64,000 nt of DNA from an uncultured virus (IMG/VR IMGVR_UViG_3300038335_000131) (IMGVR_UViG_3300038335_000131:1-64000), one strand, 5' to 3'; positions 11,701 through 19,558 are shown, counted from the stretch's first letter. A program made the numbers and translations. The notes: generated by a model not told the origin, from the sequence alone.

Positions 11701-14700
11701 CAGTACCTTATTGTTGGCGACGGCGCTGAAAATATCGGAAAGAGCGTAATATTTGTTCTGCCAGGCGACGTTAATATCATTCTGCTTTTCACCGGACGAG
11801 CGCATGACAAAGTGGCCGTTGTTTCTGTAAATGGAGACGCTCGGGTTTGTTACCCCGATAAAATGGCCGAATTGCTCATAGACCTTTTCCGGAATCCATG
11901 TCGCTCCGGGATTGGCGAATATGCTTTCCGTTGGAACATCGGCGGGGAAGACTGCTTTTAAGGCCTTTGCGTTTTTCTCAAATCCCTCTTTCCCCTCAAC
12001 CTTTTTATATTTCCCCTTAACATTCCCGGAGAGATATTCATCCTCCTGAATCCATTCTTTTGTATCAGGATCTTGATAGATCAAACCATCCTTAGCGAGA
12101 TCGGCGATAACACTTTCTTTCGGTGTTCCCGTCAGTTTAGCAATATAATCAATGTCCAGTTTACCCTTTTGAGATAATGAAATATTATAACCGTCTGCGG
12201 AATCTTTAGCGTAAAGGATTTCTTTCTCAGGGTAAAACATTCTTTCATTAAGGATAGTTGATTTTACCGCGCTGGCCGGAGACGGCTTAATCCCTAATGT
12301 TTTGGCTTTGGCTTTGGTTATTTCCTTTTTAAAGTCTATTTCCAGGCCGAATTCTATTTTTACATCGTCAGACATTAAAGAGAAGTTGGAACTTTCATTT
12401 ATAAATCCGTGCTGTTTTACAAAATTATCATATAGGAAATTGAGTTGTTTCCTTAACTGTTCAATATTGCTAAGATCAAAACGCTCTGCATTGACAAGTT
12501 CATAAGCCTTTGCCCTGATTTCCAACATTCCCTTAATACGCATATAGCGGGTTTCGCCGAGTAATTGCTTCTCTGTCCATTTTGTTTTAGGACTCAGGCG
12601 CGCGTAGGTCGGATTGCCGTATTCGTCGTTATCCTCCCGCATATAAATCCGGTCTTTGTCCATGAAGAAGCCGCCGACGGCAACATCTTCTTTATTGGGT
12701 ACAAGAGAAAGAGCGGCGGCATCCAGTTTGTCATTATTGCTTTTAGCGACATCTTTAAATTCTGCCAATATTGAGTTTTCAAGTAAATTATCAATCAGGC
12801 TTTCAATATCTTCGCCCTCTCGTTTGTTGAGGGTAAACTCACCCTTGCCGCCTTCTTTCCAGGCGCCGCCGTACATCGTGCCTTTCATGGAGGGCTCGCC
12901 TAACATTAAGTCCTGATTCTTTGCAAAATACTTATTCAGCGTGATTTCTTCGCCGCCCTTGTTGGTCATGGTCGCGCCGGTCGTCAGCCACTTAGCGGAT
13001 AGATTCGGTTCTTCGCCAGGCATTAATCTCTGGAAAAATACAAGGTCGGTCGTGACTTCCGTTCCTGCGTTTTTGGCAAAGGCGTCATTAGGCAAACGGA
13101 TTGCCGCGAGTAATTTGAATTGTTTTGCCAGGAATTCTCTCGCTTCGGGATCTGCCGTGTCAAGAAAACGGGTAGTGATAACCATACCCATTACTCCGCC
13201 CGGCTTTAAGTGCATACCGGTTTTGGATATGACGTAATTGTGTATCTTCATCCGGCTGATTTCCGCCCTGTCTTTCCGCGTGTCGGATATCCTTACGTCG
13301 CCAAAAGGAGGATTGCCGACGGCCGCATCGAATTTACCGTAAGGGAATTCTGCCGTCTGAAATCCGGAATGAATAAGCTGAGACTCGGGATAGAGGTATT
13401 GCCCTATTTTGGCCGTGATCGGATCGAGTTCTGAGCCGTACCACTTGGAAGAAGCGGCCATATCTTCCGGCATGAGGCCGATAAAATTGCCTGATCCATA
13501 GGTAGGTTCAATGATATTACCGCCCGTAAACCCGAAATGACGCATTATTTTGTATATGGAACGTATAACCTGGGGGCTTGTGTAATGTGCGTTTAAAACG
13601 GATTGACGCGCCTCAAAGAATTCTTCTTTTGTCAGTAATTCTTTAAGGTCGGAATAAGCTCTCTGGTCCTGAGGTTTGTTACTGGTCTCGTCAAAGACGT
13701 TCTTTATCCCGCCCCATCCGACATATTTGGCGAGTACGGCTTGTTCTTCTTTGGTGGGATAACGGTGTTCCTGATCCAGTTTCTTGATAAGACGAATCGC
13801 CGCAATATTGCGGTCAATCTTCTGGCCGCGGGTTCCACTGCCAATATCATCTTCTTCTGTTATTCGGTAATTTCCGGGATTGACACCGGATAATTGAATG
13901 GTGCGCGGCTCACTGGCCGGCTCTTCTACTGCCGATGGTCCGGACGGTAAGACTTCGCTATCTGTTCCGCTGTCTTGAAGATGAACAGGTGACGACTGTC
14001 CTGCCACGCTTCCGCTTCCGTCGAGCCCCCCTGCATCAAGGTCTGCATTTCCCTCATTGTCAGTTTCGCCGCCGCTTCGCTCTCCCCTTCGAGTGCCTTG
14101 TCCTCTACCATCTGCTGATAGACTTCCGGATTCGTCACTTTCCAGTGTTCCCGTGCCTGTGCTGCCATTTGCGGGATGTTCATTTTTCTCACCTTCCTTG
14201 GTTATATTATAATCCTTTTTTGTGTTTTTGTCAATAGTTTCGGTCTTTGCCTTTGGCGTTTCTGCAAACCTTAAAAACTTTTCTATCGAATCCGTATGCC
14301 TATCGCGGCCAGTTCTCCATGTTATTTGATCGCCATTTATGCTTTCGACGTATGCGGTCAAGCCGCTTGTTAAAACAAAATCTGTATTGGGTTTTACCCA
14401 TTCAGGAACTTTTGCGGCTAACCTCTCATAATGTTCATCATCGAGTTCATCGGCATATTTTCGCGCCGCTGCCTCATATACCTTTTTCGCCTTTCCTTCC
14501 GGCATGGAATCAACCGCACCGAATAGATAAGCTCTTACGTCAAGGGCTTTCGCTTTCGCACGGTTTACAATCTCAGCAAGGTAAGGCTTTAATTTCTGAT
14601 AAAGAGTTTCGTCAAGTTCTTTGGTGGAAATAGAGCCGCGTTCTCCAATATGCTCATTGATAATATCGAACATATCTTTAACCAGATCGCCAGTTGACTT

Positions 14701-17607
14701 CGTGGAAAGGTCTTCTTCTTTTTTAACCACCGTTGCCGGTTCTTCCGTTCTTCCTATTTCCTCTTCCGTCTTCCACTGATCCCGGCGGTTATCAGGATTA
14801 ATCTCGGGTTGCACCCCGCCGCGTGTCATAGCCATTGTAACGGGTTCGGTTACTCTTATACGTCCATCAGTGAAATATCGGACACCATCACCACGTTCAT
14901 AAAGATTATGTCCGTCTGGATTCTTGCCAATCAACCTGCCGCCTTTATCAGCGTTGGCAGTATATTTAACTTCGGGTTTTGGTTCCGCTTTCTTCCTGTA
15001 TTTCTCCGGCACCTTATCGGCTTCCGTCCATCCGCCGGGAGGGGCTTTCTCCATGATGTTCTTCTTTGGTTTCTTCTTCAGCACGGTCTCGGTTTTCTTC
15101 TTAGGGGTGGCCTCCTTTGTAATTTCTTGATTAAGTTTTTTTGCCTCTTCCAATTCCTCTGGTGATAATATTTTTTTCTGTGCTTTATTTTCGAGGCTTC
15201 TTAGTCTTGCTGTTTTTTTCGCTTTTTCAACAGCCGCGGCATCGTTTTCGTCAACAATATTCCCGCGGTGAAGTCCTGTATCGTCAAGAGGGCGTTCTCC
15301 ATTAGAATTATATCTTTTTAGGATTTTTCTATCGGTCGTTAATTCGTTTGTGTCAATATAATGGTATCTGCCGTAAACATCGATCACTCTTTTAAGATCC
15401 GGTTTTTGGGTTGCGGATTCCTTCTTCTGCAGATCAGGATAATCCTTTAAGACTTCCGGGGGAACTAGTTTACCTTCGGAAAGGGCTTTCACGATAAAAT
15501 ATTTATGTGTGTTGTTTATAGATATTCCAGTATCACTTTCTAATTTATCAACCTGTTCCGGTGTCGGTTTTATTTCCTTTAATAAAGATTGCCGCTCTTT
15601 TGCCTGCTTTTTATCATGGGCTACCGCTTCTTGGCGTGACTTAAAATCTTTCTTGTCTGATTTTCCTATTGAGAATAAATAATCAGAAAATTCTTCCCTC
15701 GTCATTTCCCATGGCTCTTTAGGTGCTTCCAACTGATTGCCTGTAAACTTATCCTGAATAGGCGTGATTTCGCCTGTGGTAAGGGGTTCTTTTGTTTGCG
15801 TCTTAATCCCGAACATGGCTTTCACATTAGAAACCTGTTTTTCATCAGGAGCGAAAGGAATCAGTTCATCCTTTGTAAATTTGGCAGGAGATAACAACCC
15901 TCCTTTATGGATATATGCGCCGTCAATCTTGCCGGCTTCATCAATGCCTTTTATAATTATCGAATTAGCCTTTGGTTTACCTTTCTGCCTGTAAAGACCA
16001 CCCAATTCAAACTTATCCGTTCCCGGACGCATAGCTTCAAGCATTTGATCATCGGTTATCTCAGGTGGCAAAACTTCCGCATTTGCCGCAGGTTCAACGA
16101 TCTCCGCGCCCTTTACTTCCGGTGTCTCAATAGTAGAAGTCTCAGCAGGGGTTAAAGCGTCGATTCTCTCCTGTATTTTTTTGCGTCTTGCGACTGCCGC
16201 CTTTCCTTCGCCCTTTACTTTGCTCAACTGCTTATTGAGATTGTCCACTTTACGGGCGTTATCTTCTGGTTCATTAATCGGCACATCTACTTTTTCTTGC
16301 ACTTCTCCGGAGATACTGTTTGTTTCTGTGGTTTCCCCGACTCCACCAGTTCCCTTATGTTCGCTGATATCACCCTCTGGCTCTTTTTCCGTGGCATTTT
16401 GTGCCTCCTTAAATAATTTATTGGTATCTGCTTCAACGATAATACTATTTATAGCGTCCTCTGCCTCTGGCATGGTTTTTAATATATTCTTTCTATGCGC
16501 CAGGGCTTCATCTTTAGTAAGGTTTCCGGAAAGTAGTTTTTGCTTGAATGTCTCAATCTCTACTTCCGGTTGCTCGATCATTGTCTTTTGTGGGGACTGA
16601 GGGGTTTCCGTTTGCTTGTCGGTTTTCTTTGTTTCGTCTTTTCCTTTTTTCATTCCCCTGTAAGCCATACCGCCACCGGTCATAAATCCAGATAACAGCA
16701 GTACGCTTGGCAATACTTCTCCCGCGGATTTCAACCAATCGTCGGGACTTGTCCACTGGCGAAGAGGTTCATTAGACTGACCGGCTTTAACCTCGGCATT
16801 CTGCTGTCCCATCTGAGTAACTGTTTCCGTTGCCTCTTCCGTTCCAACAATACCGGCCGCACGAGCGCCACCTTTTACAATCTTTCCGAGAACACCCTTG
16901 GGAATCATGCTTGCTATACGACCGGGCAAAGTTCCTTTCCCTGCCATCAATGCCAGCTCCAGAACATTACCGACGGCTTCCGGCCCTGCTTCCCATAAAC
17001 CTGATTCAGTGGCGAGAGTGTCAAATTTACGCTTAAATACTGCTTCTTCTTCCGGTGTGATCGGTCGTCCAAAGTTTTTAATGCTTTCTTCGTTTACTTT
17101 GGTCAACCAGTCATTCATGGCCTGATAACTCTGCATACGATAAGCCGTTGCGCCACCTGCTGCCATGCTAGTTGCAATATTAACTCCCGGTACGGGAACA
17201 AGAGCGCCAGCGGCACTGGCTCCCATGGAAACGCCCGAGAAGGAAAGATTCTGCCCTAGTCCGGCCACATCTTCGTTGGATATAATTCCGGGGATAAGGT
17301 CTCCAGTGTCTTTATACTCTTCAGAAAGTTCTCTATTGCGTTTATTCACAAATTGGACAAACTTATCGCCGACATCAGGGTTAGCCACGGATGGACCCGA
17401 TTTCCCTTGCGCTGCCGTAATAGCGGAAGCAAGAAGGTTTTCCGGTACGCGCGTAAGTGTTCTTACAAATGCTCCGGCTGAGGATCGCTCTTTCTTTTTG
17501 GGTATCTGGTCGGTAACGTCTACGAAACCGTCAGGAAGAGAACTCTCTTGTGATTGAATTTGATCGGTTACATCAATAAACCCGTTATCGAGTTTGGGCT
17601 CGGCCAT
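2752..17607 (-). CDS. Giant DarB-like large polyvalent (ejected) protein: N6-adenine MTase, SNF2 helicase, HExxH metallopeptidase, EEVQSDWHQ domain, PLxRFG-like C-terminal region
   Basis: IEPTYGSGNF (~13485-13515), GNPPF (~13303-13317), DHCVGAGKT (~11386-11412), DESH (~10912-10923), QREGRLVRQGN (~9565-9597), HESVH (~7567-7581); AAGGAGG SD. Confidence 0.9.
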   Translation of the reverse strand: MAEPKLDNGFIDVTDQIQSQESSLPDGFVDVTDQIPKKKERSSAGAFVRTLTRVPENLLASAITAAQGKSGPSVANPDVGDKFVQFVNKRNRELSEEYKDTGDLIPGIISNEDVAGLGQNLSFSGVSMGASAAGALVPVPGVNIATSMAAGGATAYRMQSYQAMNDWLTKVNEESIKNFGRPITPEEEAVFKRKFDTLATESGLWEAGPEAVGNVLELALMAGKGTLPGRIASMIPKGVLGKIVKGGARAAGIVGTEEATETVTQMGQQNAEVKAGQSNEPLRQWTSPDDWLKSAGEVLPSVLLLSGFMTGGGMAYRGMKKGKDETKKTDKQTETPQSPQKTMIEQPEVEIETFKQKLLSGNLTKDEALAHRKNILKTMPEAEDAINSIIVEADTNKLFKEAQNATEKEPEGDISEHKGTGGVGETTETNSISGEVQEKVDVPINEPEDNARKVDNLNKQLSKVKGEGKAAVARRKKIQERIDALTPAETSTIETPEVKGAEIVEPAANAEVLPPEITDDQMLEAMRPGTDKFELGGLYRQKGKPKANSIIIKGIDEAGKIDGAYIHKGGLLSPAKFTKDELIPFAPDEKQVSNVKAMFGIKTQTKEPLTTGEITPIQDKFTGNQLEAPKEPWEMTREEFSDYLFSIGKSDKKDFKSRQEAVAHDKKQAKERQSLLKEIKPTPEQVDKLESDTGISINNTHKYFIVKALSEGKLVPPEVLKDYPDLQKKESATQKPDLKRVIDVYGRYHYIDTNELTTDRKILKRYNSNGERPLDDTGLHRGNIVDENDAAAVEKAKKTARLRSLENKAQKKILSPEELEEAKKLNQEITKEATPKKKTETVLKKKPKKNIMEKAPPGGWTEADKVPEKYRKKAEPKPEVKYTANADKGGRLIGKNPDGHNLYERGDGVRYFTDGRIRVTEPVTMAMTRGGVQPEINPDNRRDQWKTEEEIGRTEEPATVVKKEEDLSTKSTGDLVKDMFDIINEHIGERGSISTKELDETLYQKLKPYLAEIVNRAKAKALDVRAYLFGAVDSMPEGKAKKVYEAAARKYADELDDEHYERLAAKVPEWVKPNTDFVLTSGLTAYVESINGDQITWRTGRDRHTDSIEKFLRFAETPKAKTETIDKNTKKDYNITKEGEKNEHPANGSTGTGTLESDESGSLSADGRGQGTRRGERSGGETDNEGNADLDAGGLDGSGSVAGQSSPVHLQDSGTDSEVLPSGPSAVEEPASEPRTIQLSGVNPGNYRITEEDDIGSGTRGQKIDRNIAAIRLIKKLDQEHRYPTKEEQAVLAKYVGWGGIKNVFDETSNKPQDQRAYSDLKELLTKEEFFEARQSVLNAHYTSPQVIRSIYKIMRHFGFTGGNIIEPTYGSGNFIGLMPEDMAASSKWYGSELDPITAKIGQYLYPESQLIHSGFQTAEFPYGKFDAAVGNPPFGDVRISDTRKDRAEISRMKIHNYVISKTGMHLKPGGVMGMVITTRFLDTADPEAREFLAKQFKLLAAIRLPNDAFAKNAGTEVTTDLVFFQRLMPGEEPNLSAKWLTTGATMTNKGGEEITLNKYFAKNQDLMLGEPSMKGTMYGGAWKEGGKGEFTLNKREGEDIESLIDNLLENSILAEFKDVAKSNNDKLDAAALSLVPNKEDVAVGGFFMDKDRIYMREDNDEYGNPTYARLSPKTKWTEKQLLGETRYMRIKGMLEIRAKAYELVNAERFDLSNIEQLRKQLNFLYDNFVKQHGFINESSNFSLMSDDVKIEFGLEIDFKKEITKAKAKTLGIKPSPASAVKSTILNERMFYPEKEILYAKDSADGYNISLSQKGKLDIDYIAKLTGTPKESVIADLAKDGLIYQDPDTKEWIQEDEYLSGNVKGKYKKVEGKEGFEKNAKALKAVFPADVPTESIFANPGATWIPEKVYEQFGHFIGVTNPSVSIYRNNGHFVMRSSGEKQNDINVAWQNKYYALSDIFSAVANNKVLIAWDGTGDERIQNKEQTAELATIVKNVRSTFFDWIFADDTRAKELNKIYNDTQNTHAKRKNDGKLLHTVGASPAVILRNTQRDAAWRIIQSKRVLLDHCVGAGKTYTIITGVQERVRMGLTRKAMIAVPNHLVGQWAADYVRLYPGARILAATKKDFSKPNRRRLFARIATGKYDAVIVGHSSFGFIPLEPEAITNLMMEEIAQLEQAEAQAKADGNKRLVKTLANRIAKKREKITELLGRPKDNVTTFEGMGIDHLVVDESHEFKNLEYSSAMQNITGMGNPMGSKRAFDMYAKIRWLTAQKDYALNFATGTPISNSLVEMYALLRYMNRDALYARGIDAFDSWANTYASIEPRIEYTASQKLKQRTVMATFNNLPELLQLYEEFADIVTMPDLKRIYAEQIRERNARTGGNESEEFPIPKVKDGGRVLDVAEPSQEQIEYVDYLVARAERLEELGRKNDPKIDNHLWIMSDARKMALDVRLVDPTAKENPNNKINRATKKIKDIYDRTAKDRGAQLVFCDLSTPAGTAQKNAAVFIREALNKAHLENDARTKAILDSLSTYQEKWGYLRNRLEAEIEAITDHSQAETDQYMKRREEIEEYLEKVTDDVTADLTTADTGFSVYDEMKSKLIMMGIPEGEIKFIHSANTEQQKEDLFAMVNSGQVRVLLGSSQKMGAGMNVQERLVALHHMDAPWRPSDVEQREGRLVRQGNKLYYIDPTGFKVEIIAYSTANTFDAVMWQILARKGGMLDDFRSGRRSVEEVNTDSASYSEFMAETTGNPAFKEKFQLENDIQTLEAIKNRTATRLRSSQQSLDYNKDARIEAQKEIEKRDKVIDDLRGQSTFTFEGKKYKDNAKALVEKEADEIAAYNALVNKKYNTEIDAATAEAFKKEGLTPPERPSQSDYHSGKMSVNEYNAAQVEYSKFWGDEKNTKIVADAIKGIKKPTNKHFHSSKLAKSDKSGVIAAGLKIVEEINALDEGESFTYQLGNTEIEIKKLESGWTDKKAENPVQLWDYVITADGMFLRRLDHDKSFDERDIWNLLNVEYVSNKMAEHRDFAANYIARMDQSDEISRHTLKSLQFKDEEKLQKMKTRYREVLTEVQKAEEEIGARRASTGNKYISKDRPRFPDGVWVSKKHRNETVESPEVDIDEDIETIKAKRDAIKHDLFDEEGNDPNEVAQQLFNKGYERLTDSETVQVQDTIAFKYAEFARYEAILSQEDEAHIENAQDKLDMAQDIWNEWHEGEAYPQEIKLAQKVINSIRSGQGRLFNGQQYAVRETGTFQLPTLSEVQDVFKGQEVTQTSDGKIWIKTAGGKYLTILNVDHIEPDKITMNIGYSRSSLKPTEKIAGAYLKVGNEGQIRLVRGQADKQTLYHESVHFMEDLGILRPLDVAALRGHIKRLVREGKFQTQNKDDIGGSEDRANFIADALTSPPVGPIRRIINRIQDFIDKLVNLFSRTTRGVIRDIKSGEIYNEKPTISGALRDIYDEPGVETGRYNVNPPIADTFFSQLSKVVEVKLPNAGTPEQFRNMITAWANKGEFKTDELKWSGLNEWLDGQTGKISKKDVVDYLAQNQVQIQEITKNGQDILAEKIRIEAAFQSVGWEIGREMGGDIEVTDRNGELVEPETVREEAPELYDMGIRYSEINDGEAIEDVKFSSYQLPGGENYRELLLTLPGKVEIPEGWEAEKNEDGTWDVFDEEGNPMQVDQEAKTERDAILAVAGNRDKLGDAYKSPHWEEPNVLAHIRMNDRVDAEGNKVLFLEEVQSDWHQEGRKKGYGIDTSKWKATINPSFQGEWAVVNEHLDRIGYAPLSAAKTSQEAIQYVAKNQVTGIPTAPFSKTWPELVMKRMLRYAAENGYDKLAWTTGEQQAERYDLSREVFLINYSKEKNAPDDIRHVEVVTKNHGEPSFDVDITTGNIKSEGMFQGKQLDEVVGKEIAQKIMESDGKFTKLSGLDLKVGGEGMKGFYDSIIPSFLNKYAKKWGAKVGEIKIETVPRNDQEAAWIIDAENVAADENEEQEVVVRDSRTMEGVHEPFNSLREAEEWYDKNNPSKDETIVHSLDITPTMKRDVLYQGQPMYALRNQTDPPVSNDPKVLNLYLKDETDAIVQTIVNKLKPKNMTWLETMLKSPEWFDHPQIGNIVKLFMRDRNEIYHETFNDLNMTDDVDSPESTVTEAAKALKNKGLSLTERMTGKVSKEYQRLQDIIDEGDTSWKRNLKEPLEKQIADFEAHIRKEGATDDTIRVWKLYRESYDKALDLQTRQLRNMIAEIIEEAHFKGETPDLSEMKQSLKGALAMMEEWRGFYAPRLREMGNWKVQAYKEHGPMKENREWYREHRNSELAAQRLSKKLEREGWKIFNVGEIERIPETIYQDVNAMATAKLIDTALEKLSKKSELKNNMTAQFNEEILREVSNAIKARGYRSTMIHRGRGVIRGFVEDPIQRHLQYINNLSGGISKARTARMAMQELLGDKVMGQQIGGIDPVKDPKAFAVAQDYIQEQLRNADSSDRIIGLAKSIATFKFLGFNLRSLAVNMTAIMTTAPSAIHQYAMGGNGSMARVMNELARAGKDYGMVMAGRKLHNADEQAFIDDVHKKGWDDAQYTREALGELSKTHSRIWSSMMDGSMWMFGKSEKWNRGTTILAAYRLARKKGMGHVEAAEAAKTSSDKAHGVYGKSTMPMWAQGTNPAAKIGQMAYVYSKFGHNYLQMLYDLGIKKHNIKALMFAFLSPLILAGAAALPFKDVLFAFAGVILRSLFGEDKDPEKWVWDIIREHLGADAEKIGRHGLTGAAGIDISGSLSIGIGIPKNFIDLTGAIGGVFTEGKEAIENMGRGDFGKAAEHLLPSGASNIVRAFRENKEGVTTRNNRRVWNEEGKPFVPDIGASVTRGLGFRSTDQAILSERTWEGHREQATMAEKRSAIYERYRAWMIGGRKNNDEYKSIIRDAREFNAAAKDMRGVPRITSDSLRSQRRQLSHPSKNERAILRD
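13926..14183 (-). CDS. Overprinted out-of-frame 85-aa helical protein (TnpV-like pattern) nested in the giant gene
   Basis: Own perfect promoter, SD AAGGAAGGTG and ATG; protein-like sequence MNIPQMAAQAREHWKVTNPEVYQQM...; host frame is low-complexity here. Confidence 0.8.
   Translation of the reverse strand: MNIPQMAAQAREHWKVTNPEVYQQMVEDKALEGESEAAAKLTMREMQTLMQGGSTEAEAWQDSRHLFIFKTAEQIAKSYRPDHRQ
14206..14234 (-). promoter_or_regulatory. Perfect consensus sigma70 promoter inside the giant CDS
   Basis: TTGACA (14234-14229), 17-nt spacer, TATAAT (14211-14206). Confidence 0.9.
16287..16397 (-). CDS. Overprinted 36-aa basic peptide MPRKKSQRVISANIRELVESGKPQKQTVSPEKCKKK
   Basis: TAAGGAGG SD (16411-16404) 6 nt before ATG; resembles small phage proteins of the MPLKKG.S...IS.NI..E...GKPQKQAVAIA type. 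Confidence 0.65.
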   Translation of the reverse strand: MPRKKSQRVISANIRELVESGKPQKQTVSPEKCKKK

Positions 17608-17623
17608 ATCAGGCCTCCTTTAA

Positions 17624-19558
17624 TTAAGATTTTTTCCAAATAACCTCAGTCTTGCCATTAGGATATTTAGCGCGAATTTCTCCGGTATCTGGATTTTGGA
17701 GTATTCTCGCGCCAAGTTTTATAGCGTTGTTTGATTTATTAGATATATCCTTCACCTTATCTTCAGGAATACCTTTAACATCGAAAGCACCTTTTTTACT
17801 GGTGTTCCCAAAGTCATTAGCGAATTGCGTTGTTTTCTGAAGTGCCTCAGCCGGAGGTACGCCGTCTCTTACCAGCCCTTCATAATACTGCTGCATGGTG
17901 TTGTGTAATTGCTGTAGCGTGATGGGCTTGCCGTTTTTATCAAACTTATCCTTAACCTCAGAAGTCCCTAGTTTTGATAAGATGGTATTCTTATCAGGAG
18001 CTTTTACATTCCCTTCAAGGTCTTTTTCTGTTGGTAACTGTCCGCCGTATGTTTGGACAAAGAGATCATCGAAGGTTTTCATTTTTGCCTTAATCTTCTC
18101 GCCATTCTCGGTCAAATCCCTTTCCTTTGGCGACCACCTTGGACCCCACGTTACGCCGCCATCTTTAGAAATCATATCAACGCCCTTAACCGTTTTATAC
18201 ATCTCTTCGCTCTTCTTCTCTTTTTCCGGAATAAAGGTTTTCGCTAATTCGACTTGCTCTTTTATCGGCATAGTTTCGGGAAGTTTCTGCATGAAGAGAG
18301 AACGCAAATCATTTATATTTGTTCCTGCGGGTGCGGCCTCGACCGCTTTCAGGGCATCTTTGACAACTTTATTATTGGCCACGGTCTCCCGTATCTTTTG
18401 CTTTCTCTCCGAGAATGCTGTTCCCCCGAGTTTTGCTTCCAACTGTTCAACCATATCAGCAAGGTCTTTTTGCATACTGAATTTACTGGCTGCTAATTGC
18501 GCGGGAAATATCGTCAAGGGCGCATCAGGATCGCCGCCGGTATGCTTCAACATATCTTTACTAACCGATTGCCCGTAATATTCTTTGTCCTTTTTCCATA
18601 TTTCGCTATTATGTAACTCCTGGGCGTACTCGTTGGCAGAAGGAATATCATTAAAGACGCCCAAATTATTTCCGTAGGGTTTTTCAGCGGTCTTTGATTC
18701 ATTCCACTGTTTAAGGGCTTCTTCCCTTGTCAGGATTCTGCCGTCGTCGCTTACAAGCGGAATTAAAACTTCCTTTCCGTTTTGTTCAAATGACGACGAT
18801 AAAACTGTTGAGATTGAACCATCTTGATTTTTAACCACTGGACGGGCATTAAGATTAATGTTGCCCTTTTCAATCATGTTCTTCGGGTTGCTGTCTGGAG
18901 CGACATAGACTTCCTGCTTGTCGCCAATATGTTTATAGGGTTTGCCGGGTAGTGTCGGCGGGATTTCCCGCTCAACAATCAGTCCCATTTCCATATTCGG
19001 AGACGTGCCGTCAACTACGGCGCTCTTGATCTTACCTGTCAGTATATTACCGTGATCGTCCATGTTTAAACGGTCGGGAGTAAACCCTAAAGCCGTGGTT
19101 ATGGTATTGCTTATCCGATCATCAAGAGGCACCTGGCCTTTTTTCCCCTGAACCTGTGGCGCCACATTCTGCATAAACTTCAATACATTCCCGTAATCTG
19201 CGCCATTGACGCTCCCCATGTGATCGTGGAAATATATCATGGCGTCCTGTTCGGATTTTGAAAGACTGGTAACGTCAAAGGGCTCGCCTTTTGTTTTTGC
19301 CGCCTGAGCTTTCGACATGACGATTTCCAGAAGGTTCAAATTCTCCTGTCCGTGTTTCTGTTCGTCCTCTTCGCCCCATTTCTTTTTCTGGCGCTCAAAT
19401 ATTTCGCCCTCGCGTTCGGTTTTTATTTTGCGATCAGCGGCTTCCTGTGTCAAAAGCTCACGCCTTTGTTTGGATTCTTCCAATTGATTAAACGTACCCA
19501 TCAACTTTGAGAAGGTGTTAACTCCCGCATCAATCGGATTGGATAATGTTGATCTCAT
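17624..19558 (-). CDS. Internal virion / DNA ejection protein
   Basis: Position before the giant protein; helical composition; GNINLNARPVVKN.DGSISTV...EVLIP segment recalled from phage virion proteins. Confidence 0.65.
   Translation of the reverse strand: MRSTLSNPIDAGVNTFSKLMGTFNQLEESKQRRELLTQEAADRKIKTEREGEIFERQKKKWGEEDEQKHGQENLNLLEIVMSKAQAAKTKGEPFDVTSLSKSEQDAMIYFHDHMGSVNGADYGNVLKFMQNVAPQVQGKKGQVPLDDRISNTITTALGFTPDRLNMDDHGNILTGKIKSAVVDGTSPNMEMGLIVEREIPPTLPGKPYKHIGDKQEVYVAPDSNPKNMIEKGNINLNARPVVKNQDGSISTVLSSSFEQNGKEVLIPLVSDDGRILTREEALKQWNESKTAEKPYGNNLGVFNDIPSANEYAQELHNSEIWKKDKEYYGQSVSKDMLKHTGGDPDAPLTIFPAQLAASKFSMQKDLADMVEQLEAKLGGTAFSERKQKIRETVANNKVVKDALKAVEAAPAGTNINDLRSLFMQKLPETMPIKEQVELAKTFIPEKEKKSEEMYKTVKGVDMISKDGGVTWGPRWSPKERDLTENGEKIKAKMKTFDDLFVQTYGGQLPTEKDLEGNVKAPDKNTILSKLGTSEVKDKFDKNGKPITLQQLHNTMQQYYEGLVRDGVPPAEALQKTTQFANDFGNTSKKGAFDVKGIPEDKVKDISNKSNNAIKLGARILQNPDTGEIRAKYPNGKTEVIWKKS

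Follow-up and report, generated by a model that had tools for sequence, protein, structure and literature searches.

Background

Small genes that lie out of frame within larger ones are exemplified by Rz1 inside Rz of phage lambda and by comS inside srfA of Bacillus subtilis. Out-of-frame fusion that gives short disordered segments has been documented in the E. coli pangenome, among the 'ORgenes' that arise by fusion, fission and transfer (described in passages of Watson, Lopez and Bapteste 2021, PMC8788219). Giant polyvalent proteins are described as strings of domains, and the passages of Iyer et al. (2017, PMC5512222) drawn on here neither address the origin of the inter-domain linkers nor give an account of out-of-frame embedded small genes; in the text examined the words 'overlapping' and 'frameshift' are absent, and 'nested' is used only for a hairpin fold. 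Literature searches on nesting or overprinting within DarB and other polyvalent genes had no paper on the subject among those listed. The present analysis concerns an open reading frame (ORF) of 36 codons that sits behind a perfect Shine-Dalgarno (SD) sequence within a DarB-like polyvalent gene of an uncultured virus (IMG/VR IMGVR_UViG_3300038335_000131). The whole stretch of DNA that was analysed, hereafter the window, comprises 64,000 nucleotides (positions 1-64000) of this source record, a 72,318-bp IMG/VR provirus. We think it fairly likely that the nested ORF is a captured, decaying small gene of the phage family phrog_2423, and that its off-frame reading now serves the giant protein as a linker.

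In its layout the locus resembles Rz1 and comS, in that a small ORF with its own start is contained wholly within a larger gene, on the same strand and in a shifted frame. Unlike those functional and conserved genes, the nested copy is degenerate and unique to one genome, and would represent the capture of a pre-existing gene and not de novo overprinting. With ORgenes, as presented in part of that account (PMC8788219), it shares the use of a coding stretch in another frame within a larger gene; there, too, the alternative-frame part is short and likely disordered by its composition, which fits the 38-residue acidic stretch described below. It differs from them in that the ribosome-binding site (RBS) and start of the donor, as well as two thirds of its frame, are still recognisable in the recipient, and in that the recipient is a 15-kb phage polyvalent gene and the donor family is known only from phages.

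The nested reading frame and its family match

The SD sequence TAAGGAGG is followed on the minus strand by a 6-nt spacer (CACAAA, 16403-16398) and an ATG (16397-16395), from which 36 codons, MPRKKSQRVISANIRELVESGKPQKQTVSPEKCKKK, lead to a TAG at 16289-16287; positions of all features are collected in Table 1. This frame is the +1 frame of the giant ORF, its start falling inside host codon 404, and from stop to stop it spans 53 codons, which is under the usual ORF cut-off. The encoded peptide is basic (11 K+R vs 3 D+E; pI 10.46), while the giant frame across the same DNA (residues 404-441) reads NATEKEPEGDISEHKGTGGVGETTETNSISGEVQEKVD and is acidic (10 D+E vs 3 K+R; pI 4.3). A preliminary description, made from the sequence alone, had reported the SD, spacer, start and stop and the off-frame position in an acidic linker below the ORF cut-off, and proved exact in each of these, coordinates included. 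The RBS region is weakly structured, with a minimum free energy (MFE) of -8.8 kcal/mol over 75 nt (z -0.42). A promoter scan found no promoter-like site on the minus strand within 15900-17900, and the nested ORF would therefore be read from the mRNA of the giant gene.

The SD and ATG taken alone do not exceed chance, as an 8-nt SD with an ATG also arose in 46 of 300 codon shuffles of this purine-rich giant gene; within the real gene, TAAGGAGG is the sole SD of at least 7 nt ahead of any start codon. The length of the 53-codon open stretch likewise holds no signal, because it ranks only about 21st among the 99 alternative-frame pieces of the gene. What does exceed chance is the homology of the nested ORF to phrog_2423. 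The peptide matched the family with an E-value of 5.7e-7 (30.5 bits), residues 5-28 aligning on profile positions 7-30 of 52, and the match was located in the source record at E 2.0e-7 as the sole copy in its 72 kb. A profile of our own, built from 58 distinct family members, returned the same span at E 2.1e-12 in a small six-frame database. The nested ATG coincides with the alignment position of the family's Met1, and a match to any PHROG at E <= 0.01 was obtained for only 2 of the 99 same-strand alternative-frame pieces (at least 28 aa) of the giant gene. The free-standing phage peptides to which the preliminary description had likened the ORF can thus be named as phrog_2423.

Other searches around the site were negative or returned ordinary family members. 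The 36-aa peptide had no Pfam match, even at E 10, and phmmer against 1.84 billion representatives gave 0 matches at E <= 0.001, as expected for a query so short. A word-indexed protein search with the 49-aa TTG-started form of the ORF yielded zero candidates, and nothing among 50,697 phage records matched 1.9 kb around the site by blastn. The second metagenome scan, which used the 53-aa open piece, had two ordinary family members among the matches listed.

The phrog_2423 family

When the peptide was compared with the same number of phage records (50,697) by tblastn, 88 records matched, 74 of them Acinetobacter phages; the family also includes proteins of 57 aa in Ralstonia phage RSB1 and of 58 aa in Burkholderia phage BCSR129. 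Two scans of IMG/VR provided 205 family copies, a count that includes contigs fetched twice, of which 179 are ORFs of at most 80 aa, 21 make up the N-terminal part of a longer protein and 5 are of unclear type. The family is abundant and its proteins are basic; among 107 distinct free-standing members, usually found beside head and packaging genes, lengths range from 41 to 50 aa, and the consensus is MPLKKGxSxKTISxNIRxxMKxGxPQKQAVAIALSxAxKSKKK. In a set of 167 distinct members, conservation reaches at least 92% at each of seventeen positions (M1, P2, L3, G6, S8, S13, N15, I16, G23, P25, Q26, K27, Q28, A29, A31, L34 and A37). For a canonical member, AlphaFold2 with 61 sequences predicted a two-helix hairpin in which helix 9-21 and helix 26-36 are joined by an SGKP turn (pLDDT 87.1, pTM 0.63). 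A profile search of solved structures with the family found nothing significant (best E 0.48). Matches in the ESM Atlas were to unnamed clusters and to one cluster with DUF6496 in 38% of its members; the latter is a lead only, and a literature search turned up no paper mentioning DUF6496.

In Acinetobacter phages the family module also forms the N-terminus of a 445-aa 'head maturation protease' (DUF2213, phrog_2229), and this fusion hints that the small protein may act in or at the prohead. The gene neighbourhood was surveyed by drawing a random 140 of 231 candidate ORFs and running 68 of them, mostly longer than about 100 aa, against PHROGs. Matches at E <= 1e-8 were found for 33 of the 68, and 17 of these belong to head or packaging categories (large terminase 7, head assembly 6, major head 2, portal 1, structural 1); the remaining matched neighbours comprise 4 endolysins, 3 nucleases and others of different or unknown category.

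Two further arrangements of the family were observed. The first approximately 40 residues of the DUF2213 proteases at L007:2501-3838 (Acinetobacter phage vB_Ab_01_KEN_02) and L027:567-1910 are the phrog_2423 module. At loci L035, L041 and L057 the 3' end of the upstream gene crosses most or all of a free-standing family gene in the +2 frame, with an overlap of 40-50 codons. The latter could be steps toward full nesting, or merely long overlaps.

Differences from intact family members

The nested copy retains the start and RBS expected of a phrog_2423 gene, with Met1 at the ATG and TAAGGAGG 6 nt upstream of it, but in a nested position. Its match of 30.5 bits over profile positions 7-30 contrasts with that of real members, 9 of 9 of which scored 50.5-71.1 bits over positions 1-40 to 1-45; a match to the whole domain (positions ~1-43) is not seen. 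Eleven of the 17 near-invariant residues are kept (M1, P2, S8, S13, N15, I16, G23, P25, Q26, K27 and Q28) and six are lost (L3, G6, A29, A31, L34 and A37). The changes include L3R, A29T and A31S, a proline and a glutamate in place of the family's [AI][AS] at positions 32-33, and a 6-nt deletion near the start that removes two codons, the invariant G6 among them. At 36 aa the copy is shorter than all 107 distinct free-standing members. AlphaFold2, supplied with the family alignment, predicted for the peptide a single helix (residues 3-19) and coil for the rest (pLDDT 70.9, pTM 0.34). With Gly6, Leu3 and the core of helix 2 lost, the two-helix hairpin of the family is predicted to be no longer possible. 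The diverged tail that the preliminary description had remarked upon is indeed aberrant, the helix-2 core being gone.

How the tail was lost can be approached at the level of DNA. Over the head of the nested copy, identity to 161 family genes averages 0.56; without gaps, similarity lasts for 9 nt past Gln28 (0.50, P 0.008), beyond which it is no higher than the null (0.24). Under a first model (model A), a net loss of 5 nt shifted the frame, so that the original tail would now be found in the third frame, which reads SARKSRCAD up to a stop at 16276-16274. A position-specific scoring matrix (PSSM) of family columns 35-41 placed this SARKS site at the top of 11,366 windows across the giant gene, its DNA matches family tails at an identity of 0.541, a value that 0 of 3000 random segments reached (null 0.270), and the 5-nt gap is seen in the alignment to L022. 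Since only 8 of 107 family genes carry a similar motif in their own +1 frame, this signal is not automatic. Under a second model (model B), an in-frame deletion of 15 nt allows PEKCKKK to align with AGKSKKK and the natural stop, which is the alignment chosen by MAFFT; here the DNA identity is 0.450 against a null of 0.286 (P 0.003). Both models beat their nulls, and the frameshift of model A is better supported than model B. Whichever model holds, helix 2 has lost its hydrophobic core.

The host gene and its relatives

Within one giant phage polypeptide, the host encodes a methylase of the N6-adenine type and, after it, an SF2 (SNF2-like) helicase, with Pfam matches to an Eco57I methylase (residues 1421-1505), SNF2/ResIII (2046-2318) and Helicase_C (2609-2680). 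This pair, in a protein of many modules, is shared with DarB of phage P1 and with the methylase-helicase polyvalent proteins as treated in passages of Iyer et al. (2017, PMC5512222). From about residue 1207 onward the giant protein shows 33-41% identity to the giant ORFs of 22 DarB-like records; one of these is gp27 of Erwinia phage Pavtok, which bears the annotation 'DarB-like antirestriction'. Genes for a tail sheath, baseplate, tail fibre and internal virion protein surround the giant gene.

Upstream of the nested ORF, the giant protein has a conserved N-terminal module (residues ~38-364/399), for which homologues were found at L002 (55% identity over residues 38-399) and L003 (37%). Both continue as long ORFs, of at least 860 and at least 1355 aa respectively, and diverge after this module. 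No phrog_2423 copy was found in either ORF; in the complete (100%) record that holds L003 the family is absent throughout, and none of the 22 other DarB-like loci had a copy in the DNA examined (best E 0.8). The preliminary description had asked whether nested copies recur in related polyvalent genes, and among these relatives they do not. A viral-contig search for orthologues of the linker returned just L002, L003 and three weak matches to residues 600-744, and a three-frame tblastn of 15700-17000 against all loci revealed no remnant of a neighbouring donor gene. An upstream extension of the similarity to L010 and L016 was set aside, as it looked like over-extension by BLAST. The frame, start and RBS of the embedded ORF are not conserved in relatives of the host gene; of the things on which the preliminary description had staked its mini-gene, a homologous family does exist, and conservation of the SD and ATG is not seen in relatives.

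Other nested reading frames

Among the 205 family copies there is one clear further nested case, at locus L050 (on the same contig as L090 and L113) in IMGVR_UViG_3300033805_000025. It is an intact member of 47 aa with its own ATG, matching profile positions 1-45 with 53 bits, and lies in the +1 frame of a host ORF of 1437 aa, the same relative frame as that of the 36-codon ORF. The host begins with a lytic transglycosylase (SLT) domain and matches phrog_342, 'internal virion protein with endolysin domain'. The small gene, which is the sole family copy in its 36-kb record, occupies an acid-rich stretch between host modules, and is a candidate for a live embedded gene. The two loci therefore share the family and the relative frame, and in both the small gene lies where a giant virion-type gene has an acid-rich stretch between its modules. 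They differ in that the L050 copy is full length and that its host is dissimilar to the giant protein of the window, BLASTP finding no similarity between the two (best E 0.27). Homologues of the C-terminal part of the L050 host (L091-L093) have no family copy nearby. Of 108 distinct small members, only 7 have the frame equivalent to that of the host open over the entire gene, so that such capture should be rare, in line with one clear case in 205. Locus L115, considered as a further nested case, was rejected as a high-GC contig with long spurious frames.

The giant gene of the window contains a second nested ORF of 85 codons, preceded by AGGTGA 5 nt upstream of its ATG (14183) and situated in a Gly/Ser/Asp-rich linker immediately before the methylase. 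Homologues in the same +1 frame and at the same place were found in 22 of 22 DarB-like genes examined, namely those of Erwinia phage Pavtok and Pseudomonas phage Itty13 and of 20 of 20 IMG/VR loci found with an alignment (L216:1501-1818, L217:1501-1824 and L220-L239). These homologues, with lengths of at least 83-115 aa, are 32-35% identical to the ORF of the window; W14, Y22, EAW and F69 are invariant and the core aligns without internal gap, while the giant frame over the same DNA is of low complexity and needs long gaps to align. The 85-codon ORF thus has the look of a conserved embedded gene, although the two GenBank records examined do not annotate it. It also resembles phrog_938, its match covering profile positions 2080-2159 of 2185 at the C-terminal end (E 4.5e-7).

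Two side observations were made. Downstream of the giant gene, a 183-aa ORF at 589-1140 on the minus strand matches the N-terminal part (positions 45-170) of phrog_938 ('endolysin', 2185 positions), the family whose opposite end is matched by the nested 85-codon ORF. In Itty13 (L217, NC_070969.1 5599-8823), two coding sequences (CDS) are annotated on the strand opposite the DarB-like ORF, which itself runs without a stop from end to end of the 3.2-kb locus (at least 1074 aa) and has clear methylase motifs; the deposited annotation may be on the wrong strand there.

Table 1. Positions of the nested reading frames, their elements and their hosts, counted in the window unless a locus is named.
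Feature	Position	Strand	Remark
Host gene, DarB-like polyvalent (methylase-helicase), 4951 codons	2752..17607	-	Myovirus-like provirus
Degenerate phrog_2423-family small gene, 36 codons and TAG	16287..16397	-	+1 frame of host gene
Shine-Dalgarno sequence TAAGGAGG, 6 nt 5' of ATG	16404..16411	-	Giant frame reads Lys-Glu-Ala
Conserved part, residues 5-28: helix 1, SGKP turn, QKQ	16314..16385	-	phrog_2423 profile positions 7-30
Probable original C-terminal tail and stop: SARKSRCAD, TAA	16274..16303	-	Putative; third frame after net 5-nt loss (model A)
Second nested ORF, 85 codons, starts MNIPQMAAQAREHWKVTNPEVYQQM	13929..14183	-	+1 frame of giant gene
L050 nested small gene	L050:2501-2644		Host ORF L090:4001-8314

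Interpretation

Read in the +1 frame, codons 404-440 of the giant gene match phrog_2423, the arrangement that characterises an out-of-frame-remodelled gene. We propose that a piece of phage DNA, bearing a phrog_2423 gene together with the RBS of that gene, joined a variable inter-domain region of the giant gene, between the N-terminal module (residues ~38-364) and the next modules. The giant gene would then read the captured DNA one base out of phase, an out-of-frame fusion by which a Lys/Arg-rich coding sequence becomes an acidic and, by its composition, probably disordered linker. The small gene would afterwards have lost two codons including that for Gly6, Leu3 and the core of helix 2, the last either through the net 5-nt frameshift or through the 15-nt deletion. 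With an intact SD and ATG in an unstructured region, initiation at the nested ATG may still occur, and the short basic peptide would most likely be a by-product. The nested ORF is accordingly not viewed here as a gene overprinted de novo, and it is probably not a working member of the family. The capture event, with its direction and timing, we infer, as we do the linker role and the lack of function of the peptide. The suggestion in the preliminary description that the giant gene grew by absorbing whole small genes as linkers survives as the best-supported reading, and fits both L050 and the second nested ORF.

Several points weigh against capture followed by decay. No orthologue of the linker stretch was found in viral, metagenome or genome collections. 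The deletions of model B are both multiples of three and the ORF ends at the family's own stop, such that the frame would have remained unbroken throughout. The flanks are damaged, yet each of the nine central near-invariant residues (S8 to Q28) is intact, a pattern that would also fit selection for a shortened peptide; this contrast looks significant when counted per residue, but it amounts to about 3 mutational events in the flanks and 0 in the centre and is not significant by our own rough estimate. TAAGGAGG is the strongest internal SD in 14.9 kb, ideally spaced and unstructured. The same giant gene also hosts the nested 85-codon ORF, which by its conservation appears clearly to be kept by selection, and internal out-of-frame genes would thus work in such giant genes. 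Finally, as to the order of events, the small gene may have entered a giant gene that already existed, or genes that were once separate may have been fused.

Alternative explanations

A first alternative is that the nested ORF is a working overprinted gene, as the term 'mini-gene' in the preliminary description implied. From its internal SD and ATG a 36-aa basic peptide would be made, a shortened derivative of the family that retains helix 1, the turn and a basic tail and acts by itself, for example as a head-associated or nucleic-acid-binding peptide. In its favour are a perfect 8-nt SD, a 6-nt spacer and an ATG with little local structure; 9 of 9 central near-invariant residues are retained, frame and natural stop are preserved under model B, an intact member is nested in the same relative frame at L050 as the sole copy of its record, and the 85-codon ORF is conserved in 22 of 22 DarB-like genes examined. 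On the other side, 6 of 17 near-invariant residues are gone, a proline stands in place of the helix-2 core, and AlphaFold2 predicts no second helix, unlike in the canonical member. None of the 107 free-standing members is so short, and the third-frame tail favours a true frameshift. No relative examined has a conserved counterpart, the length of the 53-codon stretch is uninformative (~21st of 99 pieces), and equally strong SD and ATG combinations appeared in 46 of 300 codon shuffles. The label of a working gene is thus unsupported, and we consider it unlikely that the ORF functions in this way. That the peptide is still made, from the strongest internal RBS of the 15-kb gene, and acts as a small head-associated protein shortened to 'helix-1 plus basic tail' appears similarly unlikely. 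If it were true, one polyvalent gene would carry two live overprinted genes, and genes for giant injected proteins would be hosts to small genes that are captured, kept awhile and worn into linkers, the 36-codon locus representing a late stage of such turnover and L050 an early one.

An SD can also act in cis, as in the stimulated frameshifting and pausing known from prfB and dnaX. Here the ORF itself would be irrelevant, and the SD would cause ribosomes to pause after the N-terminal module or to shift into the +1 frame, which would yield a truncated product with a basic tail. The site is the strongest SD-like one of the gene and lies at a domain boundary, and the small ORF occupies the host's +1 frame. 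This explanation is nonetheless very improbable: by inspection only, no slippery or hungry-codon site occurs between the SD and the ATG, the site is not conserved in relatives, and a homologous gene with its Met1 at the right distance accounts in full for the SD as a native RBS.

Equally remote is a chance ORF, or an assembly artefact in which a chimeric join or indel errors shifted a real small gene or an in-frame domain into another phase. In its favour, the sequence comes from an IMG/VR provirus contig, the SD and ATG alone are within chance and the linker region is without relatives in three collections; against it, the family match (E 5.7e-7) begins at the ATG, the giant frame is open for 4951 codons through the site where a random chimera or uncompensated indels would break it, the family is nearly always N-terminal or free-standing with an invariant Met1-Pro2 and not an internal domain, and the same arrangement occurs in the independent contig L050.

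Biological meaning

For annotators, capture and decay at this locus would carry a warning, as a perfect SD and a family-matching ORF inside a giant gene need not amount to a live gene. Conversely, the neighbouring 85-codon nested ORF looks live, yet is unannotated in the GenBank records examined. For polyvalent giants, the locus provides a concrete, sequence-level example in which a small gene with its RBS and start, read one base off, supplies an acidic spacer. Together with the intact copy at L050, it suggests a path that leads from capture to decay, and a way in which giant genes can take in other genes.

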